Positions 7,431 to 56,665 of a stretch of DNA of 64,000 nt are shown here, one piece after another. The notes beneath the pieces were generated by a model, which did not search any database, was not told the origin of the DNA, and worked only from the letters and a program-made list of their open reading frames with translations. Source of the stretch: Nemertoderma westbladi (Eukaryota; Animalia; Xenacoelomorpha); assembly GCA_032718475.1 (NCBI GenBank), contig JAUCBJ010007164.1, forward strand, positions 1 through 64,000. The letters run 5' to 3'. How positions within the stretch are numbered: position 1 is the stretch's first letter; every line of letters begins with the position of its first letter. A program made the translations under genes and the position numbers.

Positions 7431-7556
7431 TTTTGACGAAGAGTCAAGATAAACTATTAAAGCTGTGTAATTTCTTTTACGATTATTTTGCAACTATTCT
7501 TGATTTATTATTAATTTATTGATTATTCTGTGTGACCATACGAACGACTAAAGAAC

Positions 7557-8654: not shown

Positions 8655-11425
8655 ACATTATACAGTACATTTAAATTAACTGTAATAAGGGTTTAAGGGT
8701 TCCTTTCAGTCATCGGTTTATTCAATGTGCATATTATCAAGGACTAGTACAGTAGAAGACCTCCCAAAAACTCAACAATAAGATAATAATACGAAATGGA
8801 TGAAGGTTTTAATTTCAACCCATCATTATTAGCGGTAGACTGACTAGAGACTGTCGATGGATTACCGTCTGAACAAAGTTTTGCTGCCGCTGAATGTTTT
8901 ATGGCCAATGGTCTACAGTAGTATGTACAGTATATCTGCCAAGTTTCAGCTTGAACGGATAACAAATAACGAAAAAAATTTCGGTTACCGCACGAAAAAT
9001 ACCTGATATGCCTCTGAACTAAACATATTGTAGGGCCTACTCAACTCCACATCCAAAATAGCGATATAGATTGAGACTTGTATGGTTTTGGGGCAACTTT
9101 ATAATTTGCTATATAATTTTTTATTTGTTTATTTTCAAAAATTTTCACATGATGGGTGCAAGGTGAAACGTTTAGTGTATTTGGGTGGAAGTGGAGTGGA
9201 GTGTAGTTGAGCGGATGTGGAGTGGAGTTTGGTGAAAGTGAGTCAAAGTGGGTGACATTCGGGTGGAAAGTTGGGTGTACTGTAGTAGGTAAAAACAAGT
9301 AGTATTTTTTTTAAGAAAAAAATTATAGAGACATAAATTCAAGCACTATAAATTCAGTTATTCAAGCAGTTTGTCCCCGATTCGCCCCACCTTTAAGTCC
9401 ATTCGCACCATATGACTTTATTTAATGTTTTACAAATGCTGTAATATCAACATCAATATCAAATCAAATCTATTATTCTGTTATTCCAATATCAAAAACA
9501 ATATAGGACATTTCAAAGTTAACACTGTTGTAATACAGTATGCATAGTGCTCTATAATAATATATATAATTAACAACTATACTGTGGTTGGATATGGATA
9601 GTACAGCTAACAGAAGGCAAACTACAGTCCGTGATGCCATCTCAGATTCTCAACTACTGTACATGTCCAATGATCCTTAACGGATCACATGATGATTTTC
9701 GAATGGATGAAATGTCTGAAAGTTAATTACACTTCTCCCATTTCGTTGTTTGTAATCAATTAGGCTGAATATTGGCATAACCTACTGTACATATAATGTA
9801 TGTACAGTACTAGAGACCACAGGCCAGGTCTATATGATTACGTTGATCAACATACGCAATTATCTACCTTAGTTTGATGAATTATTATTTCTACTACAGT
9901 AAGATCTGTACTGTATAACGATCTTATCGATTCTCGTAAAGATCTTCGCCATTTCTGTCATCGCATGTGATACAAGTTCTTTGCAGAATTTCTCTTGACA
10001 TGAACAGATCTTACCAGATCACATTTTAATTTATCAAAAATGTAAGAAGTTCTAAAAAAATTTCCGCTGTTTCGTTGCAAATTAATTAATATAAAGGTCA
10101 TGAAATTTAAAATAAAACTGCTGAAAATACAGTGTCACAATTGTTTTTCTTGTATTCTACAGTATAATACATTTAAAGGATAATTACATTATTATAAGTG
10201 CATAAAACATACTGTATGTATAACAAATAGAACTTAAGTCCATTAACTTTGTACTAATTACTGTACAGTATATACATTGCCATTCCTTATTACAGCAGAA
10301 GTTTCCAATGCGGTCGTTAAGGCTACGTGACCCTCCTGTGTATCAATACCGTTTTAATTTCCACCGCAACACCACAGCGCCAGTTTAGTTTGTACTGTAG
10401 CTTCATTAAGTTGGTGGTATGTAAAGGTATCTGGATCGTCTCTGTCTCTGTCTCTGTCTCTCCTTTGTATACATATTGTTATATTCATCAAAATTCCAGA
10501 TCAAATAGGCCTACGCAATCATTTCCTTAGCAACGTTCATTCGACGTCATCTCATAAACGTTAGATATTCGTTCTAAAATGGTGCGGGTCGATTCGCCCC
10601 TCGACCTATTCTCAACAAGTCTATTCCGGCCTATTCGAAGAAAGAGTCGCAGCCCCCCCCCCCCCCCCAAGACATTATAGTACTGTAGTTTAATAGCTAT
10701 GGAGTTTTACTATCCTCCTACCACATTTTCACACATGCGAGTCCATTATACCAACTACAGTAATTCCATTATTATTAATTAATTTCTCATGTATTTGTAT
10801 TGTACCACATTGTGTAATTGAGCATATTATTTTTTGCAGTTGGTTGTGGCCCTTGTATGTAAGTGTTTGCTTTATTTTATATATCATCTTAATGTGGGAA
10901 ATATATATACTGTTTATTCAATTCCAGTATTCGCCCCAGTAATATAATATACAGTATGTAATATAATAATGAATAGGGTCTATACTATGACTCACTACTG
11001 TATCACTGTTCAAATATTTTTAGCAAATTGAGGTATCATTTTTTATCATTCTAATTCAAAAAATCGAATTATAAAGGCAACAGGTGCACATGTTGGCTAG
11101 TGCGATAATTTACAAATTACAATTACGTGTACTGTACAGCTGTGTAGTATATTGCATACATAGTCCGACAATAGCAGATATATTATTAATGACAACAGCA
11201 TTGCCAAACTCATGGCATAGCTGACACACATAGCATACCTAATATAATCGCACAATAAAACAAATTCCCTCCACCAAGAGTAATATTGCACTTATTATAA
11301 ACATTGCACATATATACTGTATACGATATTCAATATAACCTACAGTACTGTACTTGCTCCTAAATACAATCGTACTGCACCGTTTACAGCAGCCCGCTTC
11401 CAATCCAAGCTAACGCTGATGGTCC

Positions 11426-12625
11426 TGTAAAAGCTTTTGCGGATATAATCAGTCCCCTTGCCCGCAAAGTACCGTTGTAGGTGTTTTAACGGACATAGAA
11501 GTCATTCTTCTATATGTGTGCTTTGGCGGACATGGCAAGGCACAAAACCCGCAATGCGTCAAATCCTCTAGCACAGTGTAGCCTTGATGATTCAGATTAC
11601 GACATCTAACAGCTGGTTGTTGGCATGGAAACGGCCGTTGGACACATGGTTCTTTGTTTAGCTTAACAGCCAATCAGGGCGATTTTTACTGTCGATGTGG
11701 AGATATTCTACAGATCGTGCTAGGCGTGTTCAGTCTTACTGTTTTCTGTGTTATAGTTTTGTTGTTTCTATCTAGGCCAAGAACACCGGCTCTAGAGTCA
11801 GTTCGTTTTCAGACTTTAGAAGAAACATTAGTAGGCTTAGATTATAGAACGTATAACTGTTATCAACCCAATTATCAGCGCAGTAGCGCAGCGGTACCAT
11901 CTGATATTGTTATAATCTTAACCTACCGTCTTAATGCTTTTACTGTTGTTATTATTTGTATCAGTTGGTTGAATATTATTACTTGGAGAACATCGATAAA
12001 TAACCCAAATTTCCCAATTTTCTTGATACACTACAGGTTAGAGAGACAGGTTACATATAGCGATTGCGACTTATATTATCGTGGTTTGTAGTGAATTTAA
12101 TGCTATTTGATAAGCACTACATGAGTCAATTGCTGTTCTCTTTATGTATGATAAAATTCATTGACGGTCGGCAGATTAGTGTGCAGTATTGTGCGTTACC
12201 GGTAGTGTGCATGATTGTGGCTGATAACTAAGCATTTCCTAAAGAATGCGCCTCATACGTGAATCATAAGCCTTACCGTCTTACCGTTGTGTTTAGTATA
12301 AGTCATATCTCTGTTTACCTAGATAGAGCGCCACGTCCTAAAGGAACTGTTAATATTTCCCGAAAGTGAATAATATTTGTCAGAAATTATTTATTAACGA
12401 TCAATCGAATAATACAGTAAGCTTACACTGCAATAAAATCTAAGCCCTCCGAATCCAGTCTCCCGGGTATATCCAGCGGGTGAATGGACGCGCACTAGGC
12501 TGGCTTCGGCTAATGTTGTGTTTATTGGTATTAAATACTTGTCATATGCTAAAGTCTATTTATAAACCAAAAGACATATAAATTTTGGCAGGTTAAACTG
12601 CTAAAGGTCTTCAAAAGCGCGTACA
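11426..12625 (+). repeat. E1 5' LTR (1200 bp)
   Basis: TGTAAAAGCTTTTGC...AAAAGCGCGTACA. Only about 4 substitutions versus the 3' LTR were seen by eye. CCAAT near 11670 and AATAAA near 12432. Confidence 0.97.
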
Positions 12626-12636
12626 ATAACAGTTAT
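12626..12636 (+). promoter_or_regulatory. Non-tRNA primer-binding site of E1, complementary to LTR positions 11853-11863
   Basis: ATAACAGTTAT abuts the terminal CA of the LTR and is the exact reverse complement of ATAACTGTTAT inside the LTR. There is no TGG-type tRNA PBS. Confidence 0.7.
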
Positions 12637-12979
12637 TGTCTTTATTGCAGTAAGCAATAAAGTTGAAAGTACCGGTCGACCGGTAAACCTGAACCGGTAC
12701 TGCTGTAGGTCCGTAGGCCCAACTGCCAGAATCGGTACTGCTGTAGGTCCGTAGGCCTAACTGCCTGAACCGGTACTGCTGTAGGTCTGTAGGCCCAACT
12801 AACCTAACCGGTACTTCCAGTATAAGTACATTAGTATTATTCGATTTTGATTATTGTATACCGGTAGGTCTTAGTACTTAATCAGGGAACGGCCGCCCTG
12901 GTTTTTTATTGAGATTCTACTTATTTCTGTCGGTTTTATTTACATGTAAGTTAATATTGAGCTGAAGACGTGTAAGTCT

Positions 12980-13560
12980 GCTCAGATTGTTCAGATAATT
13001 GTAGGCTGGACTGTTGTTGGACTGTTGTTGGGTCTGGAGAGATTGCGGCGTGTGTAGAGTCTGTCCGATAAAGTGCCAGTTAGTAAGTTGGGGCATCTTG
13101 AGTTGTAAGGTCAACCCCCTCCTAAAGAATAAGTCGTACTACCGTGTTAGAACGCATACTAACTAACCATTTTGGAATCTGCATATACTGTAGTTTATTT
13201 AGGCTTGATAGTAGTCTGCCAGCGTTTTAGCCTGTGTGTTTGTTTGTGTGGTCTGTTCAGGTACCGTAATAGTTATTACTCAGATATTTTGTAGGCTGGA
13301 TTGTTGTCTGGCTGTTGTTGGGTCTGGAGAGATTGCGGCGTATGTAGAGTCTGTCCGATAAAGTGCCAGTTAGTAAGTTGGGGCATCTTGAGTTGTAAGG
13401 TCAACCCCCTCCTAAAGAATAAGTCGTACTACCGTGTTAGAACGCATACTAACTAACCATTTCGGAATCTGCACATACTGTAGTTTATTTAGGCTTGGTG
13501 GTAGTCTGCCAGCGTTTGGTTTGTATTTTGTTTGAGTATTCTGTACGGGTAGCGTAATAT
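12980..13560 (+). repeat. Tandem duplication of about 290 bp in the E1 5' leader
   Basis: Two near-identical copies (TTGTAGGCTGGA at about 12999 and 13289). E2 has an equivalent duplication at about 47010-47580. Confidence 0.85.
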
Positions 13561-14866
13561 TTATTATTCAGAGTTTATGCGATTATTCGCAACATTCATG
13601 TCCCCAAGTTTATTCCTACAGTAATTGTGCTTGTTACACATACCGTTATAGTTAAATTAACCCCGGTACTACACGGGCTGCTTGGCGTAGGTAAAGACTG
13701 GTGACTTTGTGCTCCGGTCACTCCAGCAGATGCCGTGGTTCTTTTAACTGTTCAAGTATATTTAACTGCTAGTTATCTGTTTTAATAAGTACTTGTACCT
13801 AATTTAGGGTTTAGTGTACAGTGCTTTCCGAAAGTAATTAGTGTGTAGGCAGTGTATTGTGTTGTAAAGTGGTTAATAGGCACGTTGGATCTGGTAGTCT
13901 GCGGTAATTAACTTCCAGGTAGGAACACTCCGTGATACATAATGTAGTACCTATAGCGATACGGCTATAGGTCGTCAGACGGTGGTATTTTTCCTATCTG
14001 GACAGCGCAATATATCTACTACTACTTATTATTTTCAAATACCGTAGTACCCTGTCCGTTGTAATAACCAGAATTCTAACCCTTTGTTAGGCTGGTTTGT
14101 AGACTTCCTGTAAAATTACCCTAAAATTTCGTACGTAATATTTTTGTTGTGTTTAATTAGAGAATTAATCTCACCCGTATCGTAAGTAATTTGTAGTATT
14201 AAGTAACTTAGGTAAATTAGAATTATTTGTTTTAGTGTCCAACAAGTAGCACTTCACTGAGAGCGCACAGCTTCTGTGTAGTGACTCCCCCCAGAAATAA
14301 TAACATTTATTTCAAATATTGACAAAACCCATTTTAAACGGGTATATATATATTATAAATCAACTCAAACGATTTATAAATAGTAGGCCTGCCATACAAC
14401 AACTAGGTCTCAATATCAGTTGGACTACTGCTTAAATAACGGTAATAAAGTAGGTTAAAGTAACCAAGTAACCCTAAAATTTCAGAAATTCAATTATTCT
14501 AAAATAATTGACATACCGGTATTTACCATAGGCTTATTATATTTATTTCTATAAATTTGGGCTGAAATCATACCGGTATCCTGTAATTAATTCTAGTTCA
14601 TAATTATACTTATATATACTATAAGTGTAAGCTACATACCGGTATTCACGATAGGCCTATTATATATTTATATATATTTGTGCTAAAAATTATATACCGG
14701 TATTTTGTGACAAACCTAGTCTACCATACTTATATATACTATAAGTGTATACCGGTATTCTAATATATTGTAATTAATTACCGGTACGAGGCCAACGGTC
14801 ATACTGAATTACTAGACTTGCTTTAACTGTAACTATAGCAGTAAGCATTCAACTGTATAGCTAAGT

Positions 14867-17800
14867 ATGTCTGACACAAAGCAAAACCTGTCAGACAGTC
14901 TAATCGATACAACCATCTGTGACACAGATAGGAGTGTGGAGCGATTAAGAAAGGGGTTCAGCTCACTTCCTACTGAAAGAAAAGTCATCCCTCCAGTAGT
15001 AGTATCAGACCCTAGGCTAATCCAACACCGTAGGTCTATCATCGGCACTCGGGCCCAGGTCAAACGGAACCAAGAGGCAGCTGTCCAACAGCAGCAACAT
15101 CCTAGTCAAGAAACTCGTTCCCAGCGACCCGATAGCTCCAGTAGTTCGGATACTGTAGAGCTGACCCCCGAACGCAGAGTGAAGATGGCGGCTACAGCCT
15201 ATTCGGATCCCCTTCTCACCCTTCCTGCCGCAGTACTAACTACTATATTGATTGCGGTGGAGGAACACCAAGGCGATTGGGCGAGAAGTAAGCGAGCGAC
15301 CCAAGATAGTTATGCGGGATACGCCAGGGAAGAATTGATGTCTATTGTCGAGTCACAATGGAACTTTCCCGGACTCGGACTCCCGTTAGATTTGTCCGAA
15401 GCTACTTGGGAAGACATACACAGGATGGGAGTGACTAAAGATACGATGGATCCAGCTGTTTGGAAGAGGTCGGCAGCAGGATATGTGCAGGGATTCTTCG
15501 GCTCCTTAGAGCGATTAGAAGAACAACTGTTTCGACAACCCCAAGGACCTCAAGAGCAGGAAGAGCTGCTATATCAAGTACACGAAAGAACCCTACGCAT
15601 TAGACTAATCCTATCAGCCTTTGAGGAAACTTCCAAAAGAAGACAGGACACGTCGCTGCAAGTTGCTGTCAAGACTTGGTTCCAGCGGGTAGGTCTCAAA
15701 GTACAAGAAACGGCCCAGTGGAAATCCCAGCTGGCTGAGAGACCAACCTATGAAGAATCAACCGATGCCACCTTTTCTCAAGTGGAAAGCGAAGTGACCG
15801 CAGAGAGACCGCGAACGAGAGACGCCATAGACATCTATCTGTCAGATTATCAACGTTGGACTCAATCGATGCGGAAAGGTTAGCTGCAAACCAAGCTAAA
15901 TTTGATGAAAAACTCCGCCTCGCTAGAGTCCAGGAAGAACAAGTAAAGAAAAAACGGATAGAGGACCGAAAGGCAGCAGCAGTAGCAGCGGCAATGGCAG
16001 AAGCGGAAGCGGCAAAAGCGGCAGCGGCAGTGAAATCCGCAGCAGCAAAGGCAATGGCAGAAGCGGAAGCGGCAAAAGCAGCAGCAGCAAAGGCAGTGGC
16101 AGAAGCAGAACGGAGAGCGTCTGAAGAGACTACCCAACTGGAGTTGGAAAATCTGCAAGAGACGCAAGACTGCATAAATAAACAGTTAACTGCTAGTCAA
16201 ATGCAGATGATGAGTCGATCTACTCCCAAACGCCAAGGATACACATCATCGGAGGAAGGCGAGACCACCGATCCTGAAGGCGGAGGAAATAGATCTCGTC
16301 TAAGCAGGCGTAGAAAAACATCTCACCGTCACAAATTGCCTGATTTGCCCTCAGCGGTTAGAAGACAACTAGCTAGCACAGACTTAGGTAGTACAGAACC
16401 CACAGACCAAATTATTAAGGTCAAAAGACTCCCTATGATAGTTGATGAGCCTGAAATAATTAGGCCTGTCGTTCCCAAAGCCACTCCTGTGCTAGAGAAC
16501 CCTGTACTTCCAGTGCTTAACTCTAAATTCCCTCTACACAGTATTACACTGCCTGTACCCGGTAGAACAGTCCATGCGAATATCCCTGTCCTGGACACTG
16601 AGAGAGAAATCAAAGATTTGTCTCCCGTCGTCCCGCGTTGGCCCGCTACAATGTTGGCGACTCCCGCTTCGGCGGTTGAGTGGGTAGAGGAGGGACGGCG
16701 GGGGATGAATCTCCTGCTCGGACAGATGCAGGAGACTGTCCACCAACTTAAGGGAACAGTAAGGGAAAGTAGGTTAGAATTGCAAGAAGTGCAGCAAAGC
16801 ATCGCGCTAGAACGCGACAAATTAGTCAATATACAAAAGGGTATACCAATACCCCCTGTAACATTGTGTCAACCTGTTAGGTCTGAAGTATTACATGCGC
16901 AAGGTGTGGAGCCTACACGCATCTATACTGCTAGTGAAGTAGAAACTCCTATAGCAAACCCTATTAAGGGTGATTATAAACCTGTTGTTAATGATATTCC
17001 CTATAGACTTGATAATAATAACACGATGGCCCAAGAAAGCTTTACACGTCAGATGGCTAGAACAGAAGCCCGCCAAGCGGTCAAAGTGGGAGAGATCGTC
17101 AAATTCAATGGAGATGAGATGAAATGGTTACCTTTCAATGAATATTACAAAGATAGCATACAGAACTCTGTACTATCTAACGGAGAGAAGCTTAGATTCC
17201 TCATCAAGTGTTTGGAAGGACCTCCCAAGTTAATGGCGTTAAAGTTTATTGGACACCCAGATGGATTAAGACAAGTTTGGGATACATTAAACACCAGGTA
17301 TGGTAACAAGGATAACATAGCTAAGTATTTGTATGCAAAATTAGTAGCCCCCAGAAACTTCCTTAGTAGCGGGATTATAGAGTTTTCCGATGAGATTCAG
17401 GAGATCTGTAGACAATTGGACTGGTTAGGTAAGTCTCATGAATATCAGAGTTCCATGGTTATTGGAGCAGTAGTCTCTACTTTACCAAAGGGTGGAGTAT
17501 GTACACGCTGGGACAAGAAAGTGTTGTATATGAATGAGCAGCAACGACGAAGCCCTACCATGGCTGATCTCATGTCCTTCTTAGATGGTGAAGTAAAACT
17601 ACAACTCATCAAGCAGTCCAGAGAGAAAACATCGGAAAATAAGGTAAGTGAGAAACCCGTTTCTAGGAGAAGAGTAACACCAGTGTGTTACACTGACGAC
17701 GGCGAAAGCCAAGCTTCTCAAGAAGAAGACAGCGGGAAAGACACTGACCGATTTTACTACGTTAACAAAACCTCAAAGGACGTAAGTAAATACAAGGCTC

Positions 17801-20800
17801 GAACCAAAGATAGGAGAGAACAGGTTGCCAAGACTCCTCCTCAGTCTCCTAACAGAATGCACGGAAGAAAGCCCGAAGAAAGAACGAGAGTGCATCACGT
17901 TACCCAAGGTAAAGTGAGTAACACCAAACCAAACTGTGCGCTGTGCGACGGGCCCCACCGTTTGAGTGCGTGTGCTGAATTTCTAAAGAAATCCCTTGTA
18001 GACAGACGTGCAGTCATGTGGGATAAGCGGTTATGCTATAATTGCCTCAGATCAGGACACCAATGGCGAACCTGTTACTCTGACGTAAAGTGTGCAAAGT
18101 GTGGCGCGAAACATCACATCTTGTTACACAGTGAGTTCGAACGAGACAACCCGAGTCAGGTAAGTGAGCCCGAACTACATGTCCAATTCAGTGATGTAAA
18201 TGACACTGATCAAGAGTCTGAGATGGAAGGATTCTATACTGACGAATTCTCCGACGCCAACGAATCCTGTTACCTAATAAATACCGCAGTATATCGAGCA
18301 CTTACTTACGAAAAGGACACCGACAATGAGTTCCCCCCAACTACCTTTGCCAGACAACCATCTTGGAAAGCTCCAACTTCCAACGTAGGAATCAGAGAAT
18401 TTCCTGTAGTGCAGGTAAGAGTTCACGGTCCCAACAAAAGTTACATAGTGAACGCCCTCCTTGACTCCGGCAGCACAGGAACATTCATCGATCAAGAACT
18501 AGCCGAAGATATCTTTGCTGGACAACCCAAATTCCGGACTAAATTGAATATGTCAGGAATTATGCAGGTTTGGAAATCTACCATAACGGCAGATTACTAT
18601 GTAGGTGCGTTGTCTACCCCTCAGGATAAATTAGGAGCACAAAGTATAAGGTCAGTAAAAATGGTGGCTATAAAGAACTTCGCTACTACCCAAGTAGAAC
18701 CTTATAACTGGGACGAGGATGAGAGCATCCAACAGCTTAAGATACCTCGATTCCAGACAGATTATCCTGGAGTGCAAATACTCATCGGCCAAAACGCGCA
18801 TGAGGCGCTCGAGACATTGGAGAAACGGCCTGCTCAACCGCAGCCACTACAAACCTATGCGGTAAGAACTAGAGTAGGTTGGTACTTTACTGGACCTTCC
18901 CGCAGAACTCTCGAAGAGAGAATGCCACAAGAACGAATATATCAAGTAAACGATTGGGAAGTGGAGAGCAGTGAGGTGGACGAACTAACTGAGGGAACAC
19001 CATACTCCTCAGATAATGACGACATCTATCAACTCTTCGATGAAGAGAACACAATCGACCTACTTACAGAAAACAAAACTTGGAAAAACCAGGTGAACCT
19101 ATGTCAACTGATTCGCCCATCGGGACCCATTGATTACAATGACGAACTAAATGATGAGATAGAGCGCTACAACGCTAGAACTCGGGACGAACTCGCCGTA
19201 CGATTCTTTACTCAAGAATTGGTAGAGCCCAATTCATACGATAAGGCCCTATCGATAGAAGAAGAAAGAGCCAAGCAAATCCAGGAAACAACTACACGTT
19301 TTTTAAAAGATCAAGGTAGATATGAAATCGGCCTACCATTTCGAAAACGAGAACCTAGATTTATAAATAACAGACCCTTGGCAGAGAAAAGAATCACTCA
19401 ATTACATCGACGCCTTACGGCTAATGCTTCAGCTAAAGAAATGTACCAAACTCAATTGAAGAAATTTATTACAAAGGGATACGCGGAGCGTGTACCGGAA
19501 GGAACACCAGTAACTGAGAGAACGTATTACTTAACACATCATTACGTTCCCAAACCCGGTAAACCCCATGAAGTACGAGTCGTATTCGATGGCTCCGCTC
19601 TATATATGGGCCAATCCCTCAATTCCGAGTTGTTACCAGGACCCAACTTACTTCAATCTTTGTTGGGAATACTTTTAAGATTAAGACAATATTCCATTGC
19701 GTTCGCCTCCGATATAGAAGGAATGTTCTTACAAGCCAAGGCGCTGGATAGAGATAGAGACAGCCTAAGATTTCTGTGGTGGCCTGAAGGAGATCTCAAC
19801 CAGAAACCGGTAGAGTACTGGATGACCATCCAGGCTTTTGGGATCATATCAAGCCCTTCCAACGCCTGCTCCGTGGTGCGGACCACTGCGAATGACAACC
19901 GAGACGCCTTCTCCAAAGAGGTGATAGACAACATCAAGCGCGATATATACATGGACGACAATTTAAAGTCCCTTCCATCAGTAGAAGAAGCCATTGATGT
20001 CGCGAAAGGAACGGTAGAGTGTTTGAAAAGAGGTGGATTTCGACTGACGAAATTCACCAGCAACTCCCGTGAGTTTCTGGAAGCGATACCGGTAGAAGAC
20101 CGAGAACGAAAGACCTAGACTTAATAAAGGACGATCTTCCAGAAACCAAGACGCTTGGCTTGAAGTGGGACACAGAAAGAGATATCCTGTTTTTTCAGCT
20201 AAAGCAGCGAGATAATCCAGTTCGGACCAAGCGGATTTGTTTAAGTATCCTGAGCACTTATTTCGACCCATTGGGATTTATTAGCCCAGTTATATTGATT
20301 GCTCGGAGTTTAGTACAACAAATGTGGCTTGAAAACCACTCATGGGACGATCCACTTAAAGGAGAACTGTTAAAGAAGTGGATGAAATGGGAAGATTCTC
20401 TACCTGCCATCGAGAGCTTTGTAATTTCCCGTGCATATTTTGGTCATGTTCTTCCTACGTATTCCTATCAACTCCATGTGTTTGGAGACGCCAGCGACAT
20501 GGGAATAGGTATAGTAGCATATCTGCGAGTCGAAACTCCGGATGGAATCAAAGTCGCCTTGGTTACCTCTAAGGCATTGATTAACAACAAGCTAAAGGTT
20601 CCTCGAGTGGAGTTAAAAGCGGCTTTATACGCTACAGCCATCGGCCGGAACGTAACAGAACAAATCGACTATCCACTGGAGAAAACTGTTTATTGGACCG
20701 ACGCTTTACTCGTGTTGGAGTATATAACCAATGAAGTCTGTCAGTTCAGCGTTTTTGTTACTAACAGGGTAGCTATTATTCTTAGTCGCACAAAGATAGA

Positions 20801-22832
20801 TCAATGGAGACATTGCCCCGGTACGATTAATCCCGCCGATATCGCCTCCAGGGGAGCAACTCCACAGGAACTGATAGATACTCCAGACTGGTTGGGTGGA
20901 CCCGACTTCCTGAGTAAGGAAGAGGATGAATGGCCTCCTCACCTTACTACGGCGGAGATTAGACAAGCCAAGGGAGCGGAGAAAGTCAAACCTAAAACCC
21001 GGGCGAGTAAATCGAAGTTATTTAAACCGACTATCGATCTATCTGTATTACATACTTCCGGAAACGATGCTTCGGATCCACAATCCCTCGCCACAAATAA
21101 GTCTGTTGTGGAAATTAGAGATAGAGATTGGAAATCTGGAACACCAGACGTCTCGCAAGGAATCTCACCCCTGCTGCAGAGAGCAATGCATCACTACAGT
21201 TCCTGGAATCGGCTCTGTAAAGCCGTCACATATTTAAGGCGATGTTTTCATCATCACTACTCCAGGACGAAGACCATTAGTGATACCGCTCCATTGACAT
21301 ATGCGCAAGTTCATGTTATTAAAAATTTACCCAAATATAAGACATCCGACCGGTTTCTAAAGGAGAAAATCAGTTACCAGGAGCATGAAGAAACCAATAA
21401 GCAGATACTGAGACTCCTGCAATGCTATGAGGATTCCGATAAGTATTTCCTGTTGTTGAGAAATCCGCAGATGCGCTTAAGGGATCGCTTCTCTAGCACA
21501 ATGATAGATGGGTTAATACGTGTTGGAGGAAGGCTCACCAATGCGCCATTATCCTTTGACACTAAATTCCCCATACTCATTAGAAATCTTGAAGTACAAA
21601 TCAAGATGATTGTAGATGTTCACAGTAAACTTTATCATGCTGGTAGAGAACGAGTTCTTAGCGAAATTCGAACTCGCTATTATTTTGATAAACCCCGTAG
21701 AGCTCTGAACCAAGTTCTTAGGAACTGCATACCCTGTAGGAAAGCATTCAGTAGGCCTTTAACACAGCGAGAGGCAGAATTACCTAGGGAACGAGTAAGC
21801 TTCTATGAACCACCTTTTACTAATACTGGTGTAGATTTATTTGGCCCTATTGAAGTATATCGTGCTAGGACTATAGTCAAGAGATGGTGTGTCATCTTCG
21901 TATGCATGACTTGTAGAGCCATCCATCTCGATATGGTGAACGATCTATCTACCAACAGCTTCGTATTAAGTTTACGCCGACAGATCGCTCGCTTCGGGAC
22001 TAGTAATACCATGAGATCGGATAAGGGAACGAACTTCATTGGTGCCAACAACGAAATCCAGGCTTACGTGAAGGACTGGAACCAAAGACAGGTGGACGAT
22101 CAGCTAAGGATAACAGCGTCTAGCTGGACCTTCAACGCCGCCGACGCCCCTTGGTGGGGAGGAAGTTGGGAGAGATTAATTAGAAGTGTCAAGACCGCAT
22201 TTCACTTTATAGTGCCATGCCGCGCGTATCTCACCGACGAACTTTTGCGGACGTTAATGGAGGAAATAGCTGCCTATCTCAATGAGAGACCGCTTATGCC
22301 AGTCTTATCGAGTCCCGATTCCCTGGAAGCGCTAACACCCGCGCACTTTCTACTGAAGAAACCTGTAGCCATGCTCCCACGATTGGAGATTACCGACGGA
22401 GACGAATACTGCCGTCGAACTTGGCAACTTATGCAGTTGCTATCTCGTCGTTTCGCTGACCATTTCGAGAAACATTATCTGCCCACGCTACAACTTCGAA
22501 CTAAGTGGTTTGCGCAGCAAGAAAACGTCAGCGCCGGAGATATGGTGCTTATTGTAGATTCAGACCTTCCACGTAAACGGTGGCAGACAGGTCGTATCAT
22601 CGAGACTCACATCTCGGATTATGGTTTAGTACGCTCGGTAGAACTCGTCGTCATGCGGCGTAACTTCAAGAAGCCAGGCATAATCTTTGAGACGCAACAA
22701 CTCAACCGCCCAGTTGGTCGTTTATGTTTACTGGAAAGAGACCGAGAACTCTCCGGAAACTATGGAAGGCAAGACACTCTTCCCACGACCACCTCCCTAA
22801 TTCCTCAAACATCTAGGGACTCCCCAACGTGA
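14867..22832 (+). CDS. BEL/Pao Gag-Pol polyprotein (about 2650 aa), split by two 1-nt frameshifts near 15858 and 20108
   Basis: DUF1759-like gag (KFNGDEMKWLPF); three BEL-type knuckles (CALCDGPHRLSAC, CYNCLRSGHQWRTC, CAKCGAKHH); protease LLDSGS; RT (RVVFDGS, SDIEGMFLQ, YMDD); Pao RNase H (VFGDAS, PRVELKAA, YWTD, NPADIASRG); integrase (H..H..CIPC, GVDLFGP, SDKGTNF, WERLIRSVK). Confidence 0.95.
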
Positions 22833-24449
22833 TACGTCTGGAGTGGGTGCATGACTATATTATTCTATCTATTTTTATTATATTTTATATGAGAACGTTA
22901 TTATGTACTTTATTATAATCGTTTTATTTAATTTTATTTAGTAGAATGTTATTTTAGATTATTTAGTAGGTTAGTGCAATATATTAGTGTTTATTACGTA
23001 ATTACACATAATATATTTAATATGACGGCGAGAAATAATTCTTTCTTTTTCCTTACTGTCCGTATTATATTATAAATACGAGACTACATGTAAGATGACA
23101 TGTCAGTACTTATTAAAGAACAATAAAGCTCCTGCTATATTTAAGTATTATCGGTAGGCAGAGTATTAGGAATGCAAAGTTCAGATCCTCGTGTCTCGGC
23201 TAAACCAAGCTCTGGGTAGACCTTGGAAACGACTTGCCTCTTCACACTGACATTGCTTCGTGCGATATTGCTCTTCTACTTTATATTAAATAATACATAT
23301 AGTAGCGTGATGTCCCTATAACAGTAGCGTAAAACGCAAATAAATCTGTTAAACCTTTTGACCATCTGTAATTTTAGTCGATTAAGATATCGCGGCACCC
23401 ACCGATATACTTGAAAGACAAATTCTAGAATCAGTGGTTAACGTCCCCAGACAAGTTCTGGAATAAATCGGTGCCTATCTTAAATATTAATTTAATATTT
23501 ATTAAAATCTGTAAAATGCAGATCCTTTAAAATTTCTAGTCAATTAAGATATCGCAGCACTTACCGATACTCTTAAAAGACAATTTTATAGAATTAAGGA
23601 TCCTAGGTCCCCAGACATGCTCTGGAATAAAATTGTGCCAATTTTACCATCAAATAATAAAATTCACGGGAATAAAGTTAAATTCATATCTTAAATGAAT
23701 TTCATAAATTGTCATTTTGTGCAATTTATAACATTCCCAAAATTCCATTAATTAATAGATCATGGGAGCGGAGATTCATCCTATTGAGTGTATTAGAGTG
23801 CGAGAATCTCCAACATATAGTCAATAGCCGATAAAATTAATAAAATCATGTATAAAGAGGATATTGACAATTAAAGAATTACTATTAAATAGCATTCCAG
23901 ATCTGTATGCATGAGAATTACCCTAATTCTACCGCTAGCTTTCCATAATGTCACCATAGCAACACCCACGCTAGAATTAGAAGCAAGTTAAAAGAACAAT
24001 AGAAAGCTTGTCCCATTGCATAGCATAGAGAATACATAGCACACTGTTAGTATCCAAGGATACACAGTAATAACGTGACATTCTGGAAGGCACTGACTAA
24101 CGGACAAATGGCCTGTATGTGTACAATTGGTGACAGTTGTGTTGGAATTTGTGCGTTATAGGTGAATGTTACTGCTAAAGTATGTTTACAGTAGCTAGTC
24201 GCAATTGTAAAAGTAGCCCAACTCTCCTATAGAAAGAACCTAAAGTGGATCCAAGCCTTTGGGACGGACAGTGGAGTGACTTGTGCCGGTTATCGTTGTC
24301 GTGCTGTTGCTACATGTTGGCGTAAACACCGCGACGACGGTACATCGGCGCTGAGAATCCCACTGTCCGGGGGCAACGAGAGGTAGGCAGCGACGCCCGC
24401 TAGCCTAAACATAAACTCATTTCGATATTAATAAACTCAGATAGCAGAT
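22833..24449 (+). other. 1.6-kb non-coding pol-ORF3 intergenic region with conserved predicted RNA helices
   Basis: No ORF of 60 aa or more. Strongly conserved with E2 52454-54110, including an identical block of about 120 nt. Several stems show compensatory or G-U-compatible changes. Confidence 0.7.
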
Positions 24450-27400
24450 ATGACGGAGTTGATAGAAGATGATCTTGGTATCAGGGAGCGATATACTCTA
24501 CCTTTACAAGCATTTGTGGATAGCTTGATACGCGGTGAAGCCGATCCAACCATTACGGAGGGCGATGGTCGTTATATCGAACCGCCGATGTCCCAAGAGC
24601 AACTTACGCGTGAATTGGACTATCGAAAATTCACCACTCGCTATACGCATCGTAATGGTACGTATATGGACTTCTTAACTACCGGCCATCCTATCGATTT
24701 ACATGATACGGACGATGTAGACACCGAAAGGGAAATGGTTCTATTTAAATATCATACCCAGCGGAGTCGTAACGATAAACCGAGAATAGAACACGAAAAT
24801 TCTATTCGTAACAGACTGGAAAGAGAAAACGTTGAAGAACCGGATAAAAGCATCGACTTCAACGACTACCTGGAATTTTTGAGAGAAACCTATCTCAACA
24901 TCGCCAGTCAGCAGAACCTAGAGACTCGATATCCTCAAGGTATACATCATGACCCTATTGTAGAACTCAAACGGCTCTATTTCACTATGATGTATCTTAC
25001 CGCCGATCGTCCACTACCTGTTATCCCGGATAGTTTTGAACAAATGGAAGAATATTGTAAAACTGGAGAACGATCACCCGCGTTTCCTCTACAGGACGTA
25101 CGTCTTTGGTATTATTGTGACGAATGCCCTAGACCCAACCAACAAACTGAAAGACATAAACATCCGCGGAGACGTTGCGCTAAACACAGTTTTACGCGTT
25201 ATACTTACGGGAGTTTCGAGCGAAACATGTTCGACGTATCACCTACGATCGCTCGTCTTAAACGATCACTGAATAAACCCATGATCAGAGTTCCGGAATA
25301 CTCGGTCAGGCCTCCTCATTCCCTAGTGAGACCTCAAACTCTTGATCCTAACAGTATCACTGATCCTCCCGAACTCTATTCACTGTTCAAAGATTTAGTG
25401 CTACCCGAACAATTAATCGGTGGTGCTCCGGTAGTGGGTTCGTTAGACATTCGCCCATCCTACTTAGCCGGATTGGGACGCGGGCATCTAATATCGCCAT
25501 TTGATCCTTACAATCGTCCAGGATTAAACCCGATGCAACCCGCCACGGAAGTCGAGGAGAGCGTTATAAGAAACGCTTTAGACGCTATTCGACAGAAGAT
25601 CGGAAAGGGAACACAAGATTGTTTAGAGAAACGTAAATTACAACAACAAGTCCAATCGGTGAAGGAGTTAGCCTTGCCACAGTTCGATAGAGAATCCAAA
25701 ACCTCGAGGAGGACATCGAGCTTGGACGCACGTATTCTCTACAAGAGTTTCTAGATGAACGCTTACCGAGACAAGCGGAAGAAAATCTACTCGAGGAGAA
25801 ACACATGAAAATGGACGAGAGAGAAGAAGCCGCTTTAGCCCAACCCAAAGCTCAAATCCTTATGACAGATCTCTACTCTAAAACCGTCCGTCATCCCTCG
25901 ATGGTTCCACATTTCGGAGACAAACTCTTCGCGACGATACAACCCCAACCGGTTGATATCAGTACAGGATCGCAAAATCTTATCGCTGACGCCCCTATGT
26001 TACAGCGTCCGCCGATCGAGGCGGCTCGTGTTGACGGTATACTCGTTGAACCTCCGGACAATCGATCGGATCTTGTCCGTCGTATGGTACACGATGTCAA
26101 CATACGCGCTAGACCTTTACAGAACTCGTTTTATGGGATTAAAGACCACCCTTATTACGTTAATCTGACTCAGTATTATATGGTAAAACCAGAAGACCCG
26201 ACGCATAATTTAAAGTTTCTACCACTAATAAATCCTCTAGACGTTGTCGAACTCGAACAATTGCAGAAACATCTGGATCAGTTAGTAAAGGTAAACTCAT
26301 TCAGAAAACCATATAACATTTCTCGAATCGAGAAGGATATAAAACCTCCTTATAATCTCGATGGATTTATTAAAACTCGATTAGTCCATTGGAATCTAGA
26401 TGTATTATTTGAAGAAGAGAAAATACAAAGATATGGAAATGTGGAGACGTATACCACTCGGCACATGAAGTATAGTGATCTCCCTGACGCTAACCAATGC
26501 GCCACCTTGTGGCATCCAGTAGGGATGACCCTAGAGAACGCCACCAAAGAGTGGAATGAAACTCTTAATGTCATTGAGATGTATGGAGTTGTCACCTACG
26601 ATAATGAAGGTAGCGTTCCGGTCGGGGAACTAGGAACTACGCGCATGATCCACATACGCGGATTAGCTGGTTCTACCCACGTGTTTACTCGAGCGTGTTC
26701 CGACGTGATTGATTATTCCTTTGAAACTCTCACCGAAACGCAAAAGAATCTCCGACATGGACAATTCGAACTCGCGCAGCGTTACGTCATTGACACCGAA
26801 CGCAAACCGGCCATGGGTATCGATGGATCGATGTTACCCCAGCCCGTACTCGAGATGTTGTTCAACGAAAGAATCCTTAAAATCGGCTCAGCTGTTTATG
26901 GAGATCTCCAAAACGCAAAACGACTTTCGGAATATGGAAAATATCCCATATCCTTTCGTGGATACGCAGCTGATTGCTCCCTGGGCAGAAGGTCGAGGTT
27001 TCTTTCGCACCATGTATGCTAATACGTCCAGCAGCATTACAAAGGTGCAACGAACTTCCATCGGACATCTTGCCTTTCAGGAATACGGATGGAATTTCAA
27101 AGTCGGAAATCCCATCAACTATCAACAAGTATACGGAGACCATTATTCTCGATTATACTTTGATGGACCATTGACCGCACCTGGCGCCATGTATAGCTTC
27201 ATGAGTGTTCCACTCCGTCCCTCCTTAGCTATCTACACGATCTTTGAAAACACCGCACTTTCCGGTTGGCTAGCCGATGTGTGCAGTCGTACTATACGCG
27301 CCCATCCATTAATACTTGGGACCAAACTCGCTAAGCTAGATGAACATAATAAATTCCTCCGCTTCGAATGTTTCCGGCGATTTTTAACCCCGTTCCGCAA

Positions 27401-28709
27401 CGTGGATAGCCAATTTAAAGACCGCGCTTTGACCAAGCTCAGCCTAAGAAACTCAGCTGCAGAGAAGTTAGATAGCGCTGGATTTGCCATTTTCAAAGAG
27501 ATTTGTATATCGAACTTGCACTCCTCTGTTATACAAAGACCTCGAATCCCCACAGGTTATTCTGTCGTGGAAATTCAGACAATAGGTCCACTTGAAGAGA
27601 CAGACACGCCCACCTCAGTTATGCACTGGGAAGACGAACCAATATGCCTAGAATCTGAGGAGATTCAGCCTATCGCGCCCCGGAACAGCGACAACGATTA
27701 CATCCTAGAATGGTATCAAGGTCCACAGTGTCTCACTGCGTACGATTATCGACATGCCAACTATGTTTCTAGGCAACGTTGTCGGTTATGCGCATCGAGA
27801 GACCATGTTACGCCCATGGACACAAACGTCCGCTGTTCCTATTTCCAAGAACAACCGACGATGGAAATTTATTGCGCATATTGCAGACTCAATAACTTGC
27901 ATATTTTTGCGGTTTGCCCTCAATTTATGACTCAATGTCAACATTGTCAACTAAAGGGACACGCCAGTTTCGATTGCCCTTTTAATCACGATTTGGAAAG
28001 CGTAGATGAAATGATCACACTACGTTACATCAGAGCTTGGGAAGCGAACGCTGATTTACATTGTGATTCGCGCCATCGCTATTATCTTGGACGCGCTTAC
28101 GAAGGAGTTTATGCGTTCCATCCTTATCTATTCGCTTCTGTCGAACAGAAATCACGCATATCGAGTTACGAACTACTGAAGCGCGTCGGAGAATGTATTT
28201 CAACCAAGTTCGTACGCAAATTTCTCAGGAGTGTTAATCCTAGCGACCTTCATTCATATAACCTAATCAATTTTATCCGTCAGGATCCGGACTATGGAGA
28301 CCTATTTGTTAACTCACACCCCGAGTTACAGGAAGTATATCGACGGCCTTACGAATACCGAGCCCGCGAACGCGAGTTGGAAAGAACCATTAAACCCAGG
28401 AAGTTTCTGACTGCCTATGGTCCACCCACGGCTCTCGTTCAGACCACTTGTAAAGGACCCGTAAGAGCGGCTGTCCTAAAACGCGCTCTCAAGGCCGTTA
28501 GACCCCTCTCCCCCGACGTTGATGTCAATCAACCCGGCACTTCGACTGGCGGATACACCGACCATAATCCTACACCCTCTGATGCAATCATATTGCACCC
28601 TTCACCCAGGAGTTATAGCCCTCCTTGTAAAGTGGCTCGCCCCAAAGAGAAAAAGACTCTGGCCAGCTTTAAAAAACTGCGTAAACGCCGTCCACGCAAG
28701 AAAGACTAA
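24450..28709 (+). CDS. E1 ORF3 (about 1419 aa if two 1-nt indels near 25693 and 26940 are corrected): DEDDy/WRN-like 3'-5' exonuclease domain, Cys/His zinc knuckles and a basic C-terminus
   Basis: ExoI-like VVTYDNEG; ExoII-like LPQPVLEMLFNERILKIGSAVYGDL; then FVDTQ..SIGHLA and an ExoIII-like PLRPSLAIYTIFE. Knuckles: CRLCASRDH, CAYCRLNNLHIFAVC, CQHCQLKGHASFDC. Tail KKLRKRRPRKK. The E2 homolog has the A that is missing at 25693, supporting a single ORF. Confidence 0.75.
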
Positions 28710-28779
28710 CTGTTTAGAGTATTTACGTATATTAGAAACTGTGATTTTTGTATATTTATAGACTTGAATCCCATTTTCT

Positions 28780-28787
28780 GGGAGCGG
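28780..28787 (+). promoter_or_regulatory. E1 polypurine tract GGGAGCGG
   Basis: Directly abuts the TG of the 3' LTR. Identical in E2 (55414-55421). Confidence 0.7.
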
Positions 28788-29987
28788 TGTAAAAGCTTTT
28801 GCGGATATAATCAGTCCCCTTGCCCGCAAAGTACCGTTGTAGGTGTGTTAACGGACATAGAAGTCATTCTTCTATATGTGTGCTTTGGCGGACATGGCAA
28901 GGCACAAAACCCGCAATGCGTCAAATCCTCTAGCACAGTGTAGCCTTGATGATTCAGATTACGACATCTAACAGCTGGTTGCTGGCATGGAAACGGCCGT
29001 TGGACACATGGTTCTTTGTTTAGCTTAACAGCCAATCAGGGCGATTTTTACTGTCGATGTGGAGATATTCTACAGATCGTGCTAGGCGTGTTCAGTCTTA
29101 CTGTTTTCTGTGTTATAGTTTTGTTGTTTCTATCTAGGCCAAGAACACCGGCTCTAGAGTCAGTTCGTTTTCAGACTTTAGAAGAAACATTAGTAGGCTT
29201 AGATTATAGAACGTATAACTGTTATCAACCCAATTATCAGCGCAGTAGCGCAGCGGTACCATCTGATATTGTTATAATCTTAACCTACCGTCTTAATGCT
29301 TTTACTGTTGTTATTATTTGTATCAGTTGGTTGAATATTATTACTTGGAGAACATCGATAAATAACCCAAATTTCCCAATTTTCTTGATACACTACAGGT
29401 TAGAGAGACAGGTTACATATAGCGATTGCGACTTATATTATCGTGGTTTGTAGTGAATTTAATGCTATTTGATAAGCACTACATGAGTCAATTGCTGTTC
29501 TCTTGATGTATGATAAAATTCATTGACGGTCGGCAGATTAGTGTTCAGTATTGTGCGTTACCGGTAGTGTGCATGATTGTGGCTGATAACTAAGCATTTC
29601 CTAAAGAATGCGCCTCATACGTGAATCATAAGCCTTACCGTCTTACCGTTGTGTTTAGTATAAGTCATATCTCTGTTTACCTAGATAGAGCGCCACGTCC
29701 TAAAGGAACTGTTAATATTTCCCGAAAGTGAATAATATTTGTCAGAAATTATTTATTAACGATCAATCGAATAATACAGTAAGCTTACACTGCAATAAAA
29801 TCTAAGCCCTCCGAATCCAGTCTCCCGGGTATATCCAGCGGGTGAATGGACGCGCACTAGGCTGGCTTCGGCTAATGTTGTGTTTATTGGTATTAAATAC
29901 TTGTCATATGCTAAAGTCTATTTATAAACCAAAAGACATATAAATTTTGGCAGGTTAAACTGCTAAAGGTCTTCAAAAGCGCGTACA
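28788..29987 (+). repeat. E1 3' LTR (1200 bp)
   Basis: Near-identical copy of 11426-12625, followed by TSD GGTCC. Confidence 0.97.
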
Positions 29988-30138
29988 GGTCCTACATTAC
30001 AAATTAGCACCACCCTACAGCAACAACAACAACAAAAAAGAAAGAAAAACTTAGTATAAAGAAAAACCCGTGGAAAAAATAGTTAATTTTTCCCCACCCC
30101 ATTCCATCAACCCATTTTTTCCCGCCTTATCTTAAATG

Positions 30139-30680
30139 ATCCATGTAAGTATCTGTAAGCTCCATGTAAGTATCTGTAAGCTCCATGTAGGTATCTGTAA
30201 GCTCCATGTAAGTATCTGTAAGCTCCATGTAAGTATCTGTAAGCTCCATGTAAGTATCTGTAAGCTCCATGTAAGTATCTGAAAGCTCCATGTAAGTATC
30301 TGTAAGCTCCATGTAAGTATCTGTAAGCTCCATGTAAGTATATGTAAGCTCCATGTAAGTATATTTAAGCTCCATGTAAGTATCTGTAAGCTCCATCTAA
30401 GTATCTGTAAGCTCCATGTAAGTATCTGTAAGCTCCATGTAAGTATCTGTAAGCTTCATGTAAGTATCTGTAAGCTCCATGTAAGTATCTGTAAGCTCCA
30501 TGTATGTATCTGTAAGCTCCATGTAAGTATCTGTAAGCTCCATGTAAGTATCTGTAAGCTCCATGTAAGTATCTGCAAGCTCCATGTAAGTATCTGTAAG
30601 CTCCATGTAAGTATCTGTAAGCTCCATGTAAGTATCTATAAGCTCCATGTAAGTATCTGTAAGCTCCATAAGTATCTGCC
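30139..30680. repeat. 21-bp minisatellite (CCATGTAAGTATCTGTAAGCT), about 25 copies
   Basis: Direct tandem units, which also give the artefactual MELTDTY ORFs. Confidence 0.95.
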
Positions 30681-31725
30681 TAACCCTAAGATGAGGTCAC
30701 GACTCTTGCTTGATAACAAACGACGAAATTTATTTATTGAAGGACAGATGACGAATCTGCTATCAAGGAAACGACTACGTATCCCCCTGTACGCGTTACA
30801 AACGAGAAGAAAATGGAATTCGTCTTCTACAGTACTAGACCACTATCACACATCGGACCGTCGTACCACCGTCCAGTTTCTATCATTAATTCATAGGAGG
30901 AACAGCGAAACCTAGCTAACAGCCGTCCCAATGAAATATGAGTCCATCCAGATAATACTCGCTTGAGAAATATAGCTGTCCCTTCGAAGAATCACGGATA
31001 GATCCCCACCAGGTCTGAATAAATTGATCCTGTAACCTTAATTTAATTTCTAGCATATGTAATTGCATTCCCGTTGTCAATACAATTACTCTTGTCATTC
31101 CATAACCATGAGAACCCCAATGAATTAAGCAGACCCCTGACTGAAGCCGCCCAGCCCAACAACTCACCCGTACCTTCCACCAGTATGTTGTATAACTGTT
31201 TTGGTAACCTAGCCTCAGACATTTTCAAGAGCTTAAACCAGTACCTAATGATCCGTAATTTCCAATCAATCACCAAAGGAAAGTATCCAGTTTCACCATA
31301 TGCCGCAATGTTTGGCCAGCGAGAAATCAATAAACGAGAACTTTAGAAAATATTGAATTAAGACAAAATAGGCCCTTTCTGCTTCTCAGCTACTCACTCA
31401 CTCACTCACTCACTCACTCACTCACTCACTCACTCACTCACTCACTCACTCACTCACTCACTCACACTCACTCACTCACTCACTCACTCACTCACTCACT
31501 CACTCACTCACTCAGCTAGAGTTCTCTGTGCCAAGTTGAATATGCCAGTGAATGAAAAAACAATTCCTAAGTATTCATAATCATTCCGCACATTCATAAC
31601 CTACCCGTTAGGGGGCGTTCATATAACATATACACCTACATACAACCAACGTTCATTTGCTGCCAGACGTCCGAAACACTAGAATATCAGACTTACTCAT
31701 ATTAACTTCCAGATTCCTATAATCG
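30680..31725 (-). mobile_element. Decayed non-LTR retrotransposon (CR1/L2-group) ORF2 3' fragment
   Basis: Minus-strand pieces LEVNMSKSDILVF, DYEYLGIVFS, AAYGETGYFPL..IIRYWFKLL, IKLRLQDQFIQTWW and a C-terminal EDEFHF segment. Frameshifted and interrupted by (ACTC)n. Confidence 0.8.
31392..31514. repeat. (ACTC)n microsatellite, about 30 units
   Basis: Visible tetranucleotide repeat, flanked by CTCAGCTA on both sides. Confidence 0.95.
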
Positions 31726-46725: not shown

Positions 46726-46737
46726 ATAACGGATATA
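46726..46737 (+). promoter_or_regulatory. Non-tRNA primer-binding site of E2, complementary to LTR positions 45955-45966
   Basis: ATAACGGATATA abuts the LTR and is the exact reverse complement of TATATCCGTTAT in the LTR. Confidence 0.7.
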
Positions 46738-52000: not shown

Positions 52001-52453
52001 GTCGAACCTGAAACCCGGACGGGTGGATCGGAGTTATTTGAACCCGGGATAGATCTGTCGGTATTACATGTTGCCAGGGACGACGCCGTGGATCTGGGCC
52101 TCCCCACCGCGAGTGGATTCTTCATGAAGATCAGAGAGAGCGATTGGAGCTCTGGAACATCAGACGTCTCGCAGGGACTCTCACCTCTCCTGCAGAGAGC
52201 GACGGACCACTATAGCTCCTGGAATCGGCTTTGTGACGCCGTCATATACTTTGAGCGATGTTTCTATCGTCACTATTCCAGGACGAAGAGGAAACCTGGA
52301 ATTGTATTCAGGATGCAACGACTCAATCACCCAGTCGGTCGTTTGTGTTTACCGGAAGGGAATGGAGGACTCTCCGGAAACTGTGGAAGGCAAGATTCTC
52401 ATCCCACGACCACCTCCCTAATCCTTCAAACATCTAGGGACTCCATAACGTAA
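49025..52453 (+). pseudogene. E2 Gag-protease reading frame with in-frame deletions of RT/RH and IN; one internal TGA (50723-50725)
   Basis: ORFs 49025-50725 and 50795-52453 share a frame, and the TGA replaces a TGC (Cys) of E1. Junctions near 51800 and 52289 skip E1 about 19020-20779 and 21272-22668. Confidence 0.9.
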
Positions 52454-56660: not shown

Positions 56661-56665
56661 GCGCA

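Follow-up and report, generated by a model that had tools for sequence, protein, structure and literature searches.

A giant BEL/Pao retrotransposon of Nemertoderma westbladi that probably primes reverse transcription with its own RNA

How would a retrotransposon begin reverse transcription if the sequence after its long terminal repeat (LTR) offers no site for a tRNA primer? This question is raised by E1, a BEL/Pao LTR retrotransposon of the xenacoelomorph Nemertoderma westbladi. Self-comparison of a 64,000-nucleotide stretch of DNA (GenBank assembly GCA_032718475.1, contig JAUCBJ010007164.1, positions 1 to 64,000 of the forward strand; hereafter the window) places E1 at 11426-29987, a length of 18,562 bp, and a shorter relative, E2, lies downstream of it. 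A first-pass annotation of the same DNA had described a giant, tRNA-independent element and had suggested that an exonuclease encoded by its third gene, ORF3, generates the primer. Our analysis of the sequence indicates that reverse transcription of both E1 and E2 is probably primed by the element's own RNA and not by a tRNA.

The evidence for self-priming lies at the edge of the 5' LTR. The primer-binding site (PBS) of E1, ATAACAGTTAT, starts at the first base past the LTR, and its exact complement, ATAACTGTTAT, is found within the LTR itself (Table 1). We observed this 11-mer three times in the window, in the two LTR copies on the plus strand and in the PBS on the minus strand (chance 0.08), and the three-fold occurrence was reproduced in none of 100 shuffles. 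The second copy of the primer sequence that had been reported in the 3' LTR is indeed there. Likewise, the E2 primer, ATATCCGTTAT (45956-45966 and 55891-55901), and the E2 PBS, ATAACGGATAT (46726-46736), account for every occurrence of that 11-mer in the window, two on the plus strand and one on the minus strand (chance 0.10; 0 of 100 shuffles reach three). Primer and PBS pair at 11 of 11 positions in both elements, with letters that differ between the elements at 2 of the 11 places. Both differences are compensated: from E1 to E2, the pair formed by primer position 4 and PBS position 8 changes from A-T to T-A, and that formed by primer position 6 and PBS position 6 changes from T-A to C-G. 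No substitution in the primer or the PBS is present among the 40 differences listed, of 350, between E1 and other copies in public DNA contigs. Plant elements have been scored as self-priming when the 5' LTR holds at least 10 bp that are complementary to a site located 0-5 bp beyond it (PMC6317226), and E1 and E2 show this arrangement.

No tRNA-type alternative is apparent at this position. The BEL/Pao profile of the international committee for virus taxonomy (ICTV) describes an 18-nt PBS for tRNA-Arg or tRNA-Gly (PMC8742986), and neither E1 nor E2 has such a host-tRNA site. In neither element do the 20 nt that follow the LTR contain a TGG or a tRNA-type site, and the 38 bases after the PBS, which are identical in E1 and E2, hold no TGG-type site; ARAGORN found no tRNA genes in the window. 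A shared cellular primer does not account for PBS letters that vary between the two relatives yet fit each element's own LTR. The tRNA independence proposed in the first-pass annotation is supported by the pairing of the PBS with the element's own LTR and by the two compensatory double changes in E2. Could the complementarity instead be due to chance, or be a palindrome artefact of the AT-rich LTR edge? The E1 PBS is near-palindromic across that edge (ACAATAAC-A-GTTATTGT) and hence similar to its own complement. We find this explanation scarcely credible, as the exact 11-mers occur at the expected places only (chance 0.08-0.10 per window, with the shuffles given above) and the E2 pair is perfect though its PBS is not palindromic. 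Since the near-palindrome is present in E1 and absent in E2, the self-complementarity of the PBS to which attention had been drawn is real in E1 but incidental.

Covariation demonstrates pairing rather than priming, and the LTR-PBS pairing might be a real RNA structure that serves circularisation, dimerisation or a packaging switch while a cellular RNA such as a tRNA fragment primes nearby. Internal tRNA pieces (half-tRNA PBSs) serve some LTR elements (PMC6317226), and the E1 leader that follows the PBS is abundant in hairpins and palindromes. It contains a 9-bp hairpin (12639-12661), a 16-nt palindrome (TACCGGTCGACCGGTA), 38-nt tandem repeats (12691-12815) and a 290-nt duplication (12991-13572). 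For the leader's first 300 nt the fold has a z score of -3.46, unmatched in 200 shuffles; together with the second non-coding stretch of E1, at 22833-24449, the leader matches the earlier description of long structured non-coding regions. Against a purely structural role, the paired site occupies the exact place of a PBS, a cellular primer common to both elements is incompatible with the 2 of 11 letters by which they differ, and the shared 38 bases that follow hold no site of the TGG type. We consider such an RNA structure with a separate cellular primer to be unlikely.

Self-priming has a described counterpart in Tf1, in which the PBS pairs with 11 bases of the element's own RNA and an RNase H cut makes the primer (PMC7175516). 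E1 and E2 resemble Tf1 and Tf2 of Schizosaccharomyces pombe, members of the Tf1/sushi group of Ty3/gypsy, in that the PBS lies directly after the LTR, the self-complement has 11 bases and a tRNA PBS is lacking. If E1 and E2 follow the Tf1 scheme, the 11-mer of the LTR would, in the RNA, pair with the PBS, either by fold-back or between two packaged RNAs; the RNase H of the element would cut directly 3' of the 11-mer, at about 11863/11864; and the new 3'-OH would be extended through U5 and R. Since the primer would serve as template for the plus-strand copy of the PBS, progeny elements would inherit two sites that still match each other. Each LTR contains only one AATAAA, the position of which is conserved between E1 and E2 (46546 in E2), and therefore U5 would be about 170 nt long. 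An Rfam scan of the element returned no matches, so no ribozyme was detected at the primer. A primer assembled by splicing was rejected, as E1 and E2 both have the 11-mer in one uninterrupted piece.

Lentiviruses and Ty1 have central polypurine tracts (PPTs). E1 is similar in that it has exact internal plus-strand copies of its 3' PPT core, GGGAGCGG, and differs in having two of them, one within the pol coding sequence, as predicted primers. Three copies of the core are present per element, at homologous places in E1 and E2 (chance 0.12 per strand), which agrees with the earlier report of a duplicated PPT. By analogy, the two internal copies may act as added plus-strand start sites on a very long genome.

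The CCAAT and TCAGT motifs that the first-pass annotation had placed upstream of the primer are present, including a further TCAGT at 11798, and both motifs are conserved in E2 (45805 and 45850/45858, respectively). Their arrangement, with 60 nt between CCAAT and the first TCAGT, makes it plausible that the primer is internal to R. This and several other points weigh against self-priming as outlined above. The start predicted from the motifs suggests that the primer lies within the RNA, about 120 nt from the start in E1 and about 95-105 nt from it in E2, whereas the Tf1 primer is the RNA's first 11 bases (PMC7175516), and an internal primer would require that plus-strand strong-stop synthesis be ended by an additional step. 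In the minimum-energy fold of 11853-12700, primer and PBS do not pair with each other (z -1.49), and the covariation stands on two family variants from one window. Furthermore, the RNase H (RH) of E1 is weakly recognised by Pfam (RT_RNaseH_2, E 0.077), and the gag-pol frame is broken twice, between ORF1 and gag near 15754-15883 and between reverse transcriptase (RT) and RH near 20100.

A second feature of the LTR lies just beyond the primer. Homology between the E1 and E2 LTRs ends 2 nt past the primer and resumes near 11970, and among the deletion joints listed for other copies in public DNA contigs on the LTR, 5 of 15 start at 11864-11865. This break is possibly a footprint of the RNase H cut and the first strand transfer. 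The changes in the other copies are deletions or replacements of 47-111 nt from 11864-11865, and the stretch 11864-11970 is unalignable between E1 and E2.

E1 is a bona fide, recent insertion, as judged from its TGT..ACA ends, the GGTCC repeated on both flanks and its near-identical LTRs, which are 99.667% identical with four mismatches (11485, 11620, 12143 and 12183). The TG..CA LTR ends and short target duplications of BEL/Pao are found in both elements (5 bp; GGTCC for E1 and GCGCA for E2). Pfam detects DUF1759 (E 6.7e-13), Peptidase_A17 (1.5e-36), Integrase_H2C2 (2.1e-7) and DUF5641 (6.6e-19) in that order in E1, with a weak match to an aspartic protease (Asp_protease_2, E 0.0058). RT was recognised neither by Pfam nor by a PDB search and was assigned from a YMDD motif in the translation, between the protease and Peptidase_A17. 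The order gag, protease (PR), RT, RH, integrase (IN) is the hallmark of BEL/Pao (Belpaoviridae). The gag protein has a long N-terminal extension of about 800 codons before DUF1759, with an Ala/Glu/Lys-rich repeat at 15979-16134 (15- and 42-nt units). Programmed frameshifting was considered for the ORF1/gag and RT/RH overlaps and rejected, as neither contains a slippery heptamer or homopolymer run; we therefore read the two gag-pol breaks as lesions. In E2, the same ORF1 N-terminus is joined to gag within one frame.

Table 1. Coordinates of features of E1 and E2 in the 64-kb window
Feature	Position	Strand	Remarks
Target-site duplication, 5' copy (GGTCC)	11421-11425	+	Repeated at 29988-29992
E1 5' LTR	11426-12625	+	1200 bp, TGT..ACA ends
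Candidate promoter: CCAAT box, TCAGT initiator-like motif	11670-11734	+	CCAAT at 11670-11674, TCAGT at 11730-11734, 60 nt apart; predicted function
Predicted self-primer ATAACTGTTAT	11853-11863	+	Exact complement of PBS; 3' LTR copy at 29215-29225
AATAAA, predicted polyadenylation signal	12432-12437	+	Only one in LTR; position conserved in E2; putative function
PBS ATAACAGTTAT	12626-12636	+	Directly 3' of 5' LTR
Leader	12637-14866	+	2.2 kb, non-coding
ORF1, N-terminal part of gag frame	14867-15883	+	Overlaps the ORF that follows, which is in a different frame
gag (DUF1759), CCHC knuckles, aspartic protease, RT	15754-20118	+	Pfam, translation
Peptidase_A17 region/RH, IN (Integrase_H2C2, DUF5641)	20073-22832	+	Pfam
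Internal PPT core, copy 1 GGGAGCGG	20972-20979	+	Kept in E2 at 51988
Internal PPT core, copy 2 GGGAGCGG	23764-23771	+	Kept in E2 at 53420
ORF3	24450-28709	+	About 1,420 codons, frames 0/2/0, one gene
RNase D-type (DEDDy) exonuclease-like region of ORF3	26552-27311	+	From profile-profile comparison; second frame break inside
CCHC zinc knuckles of ORF3	27780-27990	+	Retroviral-type double knuckle, 3' of nuclease-like region
3' PPT core GGGAGCGG	28780-28787	+	Adjoins 3' LTR; E2 equivalent at 55414
E1 3' LTR	28788-29987	+	1200 bp; carries primer sequence copy at 29215-29225
E2	45516-56660	+	11.1 kb, non-autonomous; LTRs 45516-46725 and 55422-56660; target duplication GCGCA

The segments that E2 shares with E1, at 76-90% identity, are the 3' half of the LTR, the leader, a portion of gag-protease, 490 bp of RH-IN, the spacer and two fragments of the 3' gene. 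Its own LTRs differ by 1 mismatch in 1073 aligned bp, plus an indel-bearing 154 bp. The sole coding content of E2 is a gag-protease open reading frame (48992-52453) with one in-frame stop; RT is missing, as is the greater part of both RH-IN and ORF3. Differences from E1 in gag-protease number 56, 54 and 176 at the first, second and third codon positions (163 synonymous versus 123 non-synonymous), and because they are mostly third-position changes this gag-only lineage has kept a gag-protease under selection. The remnant of ORF3 in E2, with six indels and little codon-position bias (38/26/47), is decayed. These features support the reading of E2 as a non-autonomous derivative that retains gag-protease only. 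It had been described as keeping the cis signals without the enzymes, and that is correct for the LTRs, the primer and PBS, the three PPTs and the missing RT; gag-protease is retained. The 3' end of E2 adjoins an open reading frame (56634-57896) with Integrase_H2C2 and rve domains from another retroelement, which suggests that E2 is nested in an older one.

The third gene of E1 is present in the window as three open reading frames (24435-25754, 25691-27022 and 26709-28709). In contigs of four DNA runs, ORF3 copies differ in length at two places within 25600-27100, namely 25692 and 26909. At 25692, a form other than that of the window accounts for most of the depth in each of the four runs. At 26909, a 7-base unit is tandemly duplicated in the window copy (26909-26922); the form that differs from it accounts for about half of the depth in runs X4 and X5, for 57.6 of 173,641 in X1 and for 0 of 80,309 in X3. 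ORF3 is thus broken twice in the E1 copy, and the break at 26909 is close to fixation in runs from the same species. When ORF3 is read in frames 0/2/0, 31 of the 40 variants listed (of 220) are synonymous and 30 are at third codon positions, while the same variants in the other two sets of frames give 7 and 5 synonymous changes. ORF3 is thus a real gene that has been under purifying selection. ORF3 contains no hydrophobic or membrane segment, and we rejected an env-like third gene on that ground.

Sequence searches reveal little about the product of ORF3. Pieces of ORF3 gave only a weak zinc knuckle in Pfam, NCBIfam and PDB sequence searches, no match to PF01612 at E values up to 10, and no relatives in word-indexed protein homology searches. 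An exhaustive HMMER search of 1.84 billion representatives returned one relative, P0004 (E 1.4e-4), a single-member entry of 648 aa from a 9.4-kb contig. P0004 and ORF3 are 29% identical over 173 residues (E 2e-12) and share the knuckles (E 3e-4) in the same order. At the same segment P0004 matches PF01612 with 11.9 bits (E 0.2), under the cut-off of 23.6, and its knuckles match the HIV-1 nucleocapsid (E 2.4e-4).

We compared a profile of ORF3 and P0004 with an RNase D profile of ten sequences, E. coli RNase D and nine plasmid-borne ones chosen from 30 listed of 67 records. Over 48 columns around motif II, hhalign gave a probability of 85.8% (P 5.4e-6), while the best of 100 column-shuffle controls reached 3.6% (P 0.012). 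The motif II Asp of DEDDy is aligned within the confident part of this alignment. In a relaxed, low-confidence alignment, motif III is Y-x3-E in ORF3 where RNase D has Y-x3-D, and motif I is D-x-S in the window ORF3 and D-x-E in P0004. A hidden Markov model of the same ten RNase D sequences ranks ORF3 first of 223 targets, at 5.4 bits. In a protein atlas, the top three matches of the middle piece of ORF3 are clusters bearing PF01612, at a weak score of 0.88 with 143 shared features; the next piece of ORF3 had no match there. Single-sequence methods were uninformative: hhalign gave P 0.03, and AlphaFold2 models had low mean pLDDT (predicted local distance difference test) values of 30.2 and 31.3. 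A Smith-Waterman alignment with E. coli RNase D (z 4.07; 5 of 1000 shuffles as good) was discounted, as 1 of 21 other pieces of the window scored higher (65 versus 63); the corresponding z for Pol I is 0.56. Taken together, ORF3 quite likely has an exonuclease-like domain of the RNase D type, with nucleocapsid-type knuckles downstream of it. The exonuclease ORF of the first-pass annotation accordingly finds a counterpart in the RNase D profile match and none in the curated libraries.

Does this nuclease make the primer? The first-pass annotation had envisaged a primer within R and a DEDDy exonuclease from ORF3 that trims RNA 3'-5' as far as the primer-PBS duplex, with E2 served in trans. RNase D-type enzymes trim the 3' tails of structured RNAs as far as a duplex. 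The RNase D-like region of ORF3, with its wide separation from the shuffled controls, adjoins nucleocapsid-type knuckles; the gene is under purifying selection; and the CCAAT and TCAGT motifs suggest an internal primer. Moreover, other giant retroelements carry DEDDy nucleases as accessory genes, for which 3'-end processing has been proposed (PMC6431247). The link between ORF3 and priming is nevertheless unsupported. A frame break within the nuclease-like domain holds nearly all of the depth in X1 and X3, although this is an abundant family and both E1 and E2 are young. If 3'-5' trimming as far as the duplex took place in cis, the R-U5 template, which lies between primer and PBS, would be lost. 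In the window ORF3, D-x-S aligns at the place of the first catalytic motif, in the low-confidence part of the alignment. E2 transposed recently, as its LTRs attest, with primer and PBS letters of its own and without the ORF3 gene, and Tf1 requires RNase H only (PMC7175516). A few unbroken ORF3 master copies would be compatible with primer trimming by ORF3, which we nonetheless regard as very unlikely.

For ORF3 itself, the predicted role that fits best is probably that of a factor for RNA or cDNA end-processing, or a chaperone, that acts in trans and is not needed in cis for priming. An accessory factor acting in trans, if it acts at all, fits the near-fixed break in the nuclease, the young E1 and E2, and the decayed ORF3 of E2. 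A bolder combination is that a BEL/Pao lineage swapped tRNA priming for self-priming while gaining an RNase D-like/zinc-knuckle protein that trims or shapes the primer or the strong-stop ends. We hold little expectation that this is so; if true, primer supply would be wholly element-encoded, and gag-only derivatives such as E2 would draw on it in trans.

Self-priming has been described for Tf1/sushi and predicted for the Tcn1 and TAR lineages (PMC6317226). E1 differs from Tf1/sushi in being BEL/Pao and not a chromovirus, in being three times larger and in having an extra gene; its pol carries BEL/Pao-specific Pfam families, and a chromovirus-lineage pol of the Tf1/sushi clade was not found. 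In addition, the primer of E1 and E2 may sit some 100 nt into the RNA and not at its very start, and their RNase H cut is predicted by analogy. The Tcn1 chromoviruses and the TAR/Houba/Osr-1 copia elements (Neumann et al. 2019, PMC6317226) show the same complement of at least 10 bp; these are plant and fungal Ty3/gypsy and Ty1/copia elements, whereas E1 and E2 add compensatory changes. Compared with canonical BEL/Pao elements (PMC8742986), E1 has the same DUF1759 gag, PR-RT-RH-IN order, Peptidase_A17, DUF5641, LTRs of up to 1.2 kb and short PPT. It differs in its lack of a tRNA PBS, in a third gene without a membrane segment where the ICTV profile lists env-like third genes, and in its size of 18.6 kb against 4.2-10 kb, which bears out the earlier description of a giant element. 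Rotifer Terminons are also giant retroelements with DEDDy 3'-exonuclease accessory genes, to which a role in 3'-end processing has been assigned by proposal (PMC6431247); the likeness to ORF3 is one of description. Terminons belong to the Penelope-like elements, are associated with telomeres and have neither LTRs nor an integrase.

A full-text literature search, covering titles and abstracts and passages of PMC6317226 and PMC3601003, found no description of self-priming in BEL/Pao, and the terms PBS, self-prim and exonuclease are absent from the main text of a BEL/Pao survey (PMC3118150). Descriptions of self-priming have so far been confined to Ty3/gypsy and Ty1/copia lineages, and Tf1-style priming, which is well supported here by the sequence comparisons, would place it in an unusually large BEL/Pao element that carries a new accessory gene. 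An element that primes itself is independent of the host tRNA supply and escapes silencing based on tRNA fragments. E1 is nearly twice the described BEL/Pao size and has a selected accessory gene of about 1,420 codons of a kind undescribed for the group. With its nuclease-like and zinc-knuckle regions, this gene offers a testable candidate for an RNA or cDNA end-processing factor encoded by a retroelement.

Relatives of E1 were sought in metagenome contigs with a 24-base leader pattern (none found) and with the RH-IN protein (none confirmed of 20), and in viral contigs with RT (no loci). Within DNA runs X1 and X3, which carry the same species label, the E1 family is extremely abundant: its summed contig word depths reach hundreds of thousands, and the contigs are shattered to about 100-150 nt in the regions corresponding to 11300-13300 and 25600-27100. 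Run X4, under a second species label, holds diverged copies of the family. Next to E1, a tandem array of a 21-nt unit (29993-30795) begins 6 nt past the 3' target duplication, with about 26 near-perfect copies at 30140-30678 that decay on both sides. Elsewhere in the window, long open reading frames lie on both strands at 6467-7453, the minus-strand one matching DUF4236, and a neighbouring one at 7536-8654 has a weak PhyH match. An uninterrupted open reading frame of 409 codons at 61462-62691 encodes complete FERM N, M and C domains.

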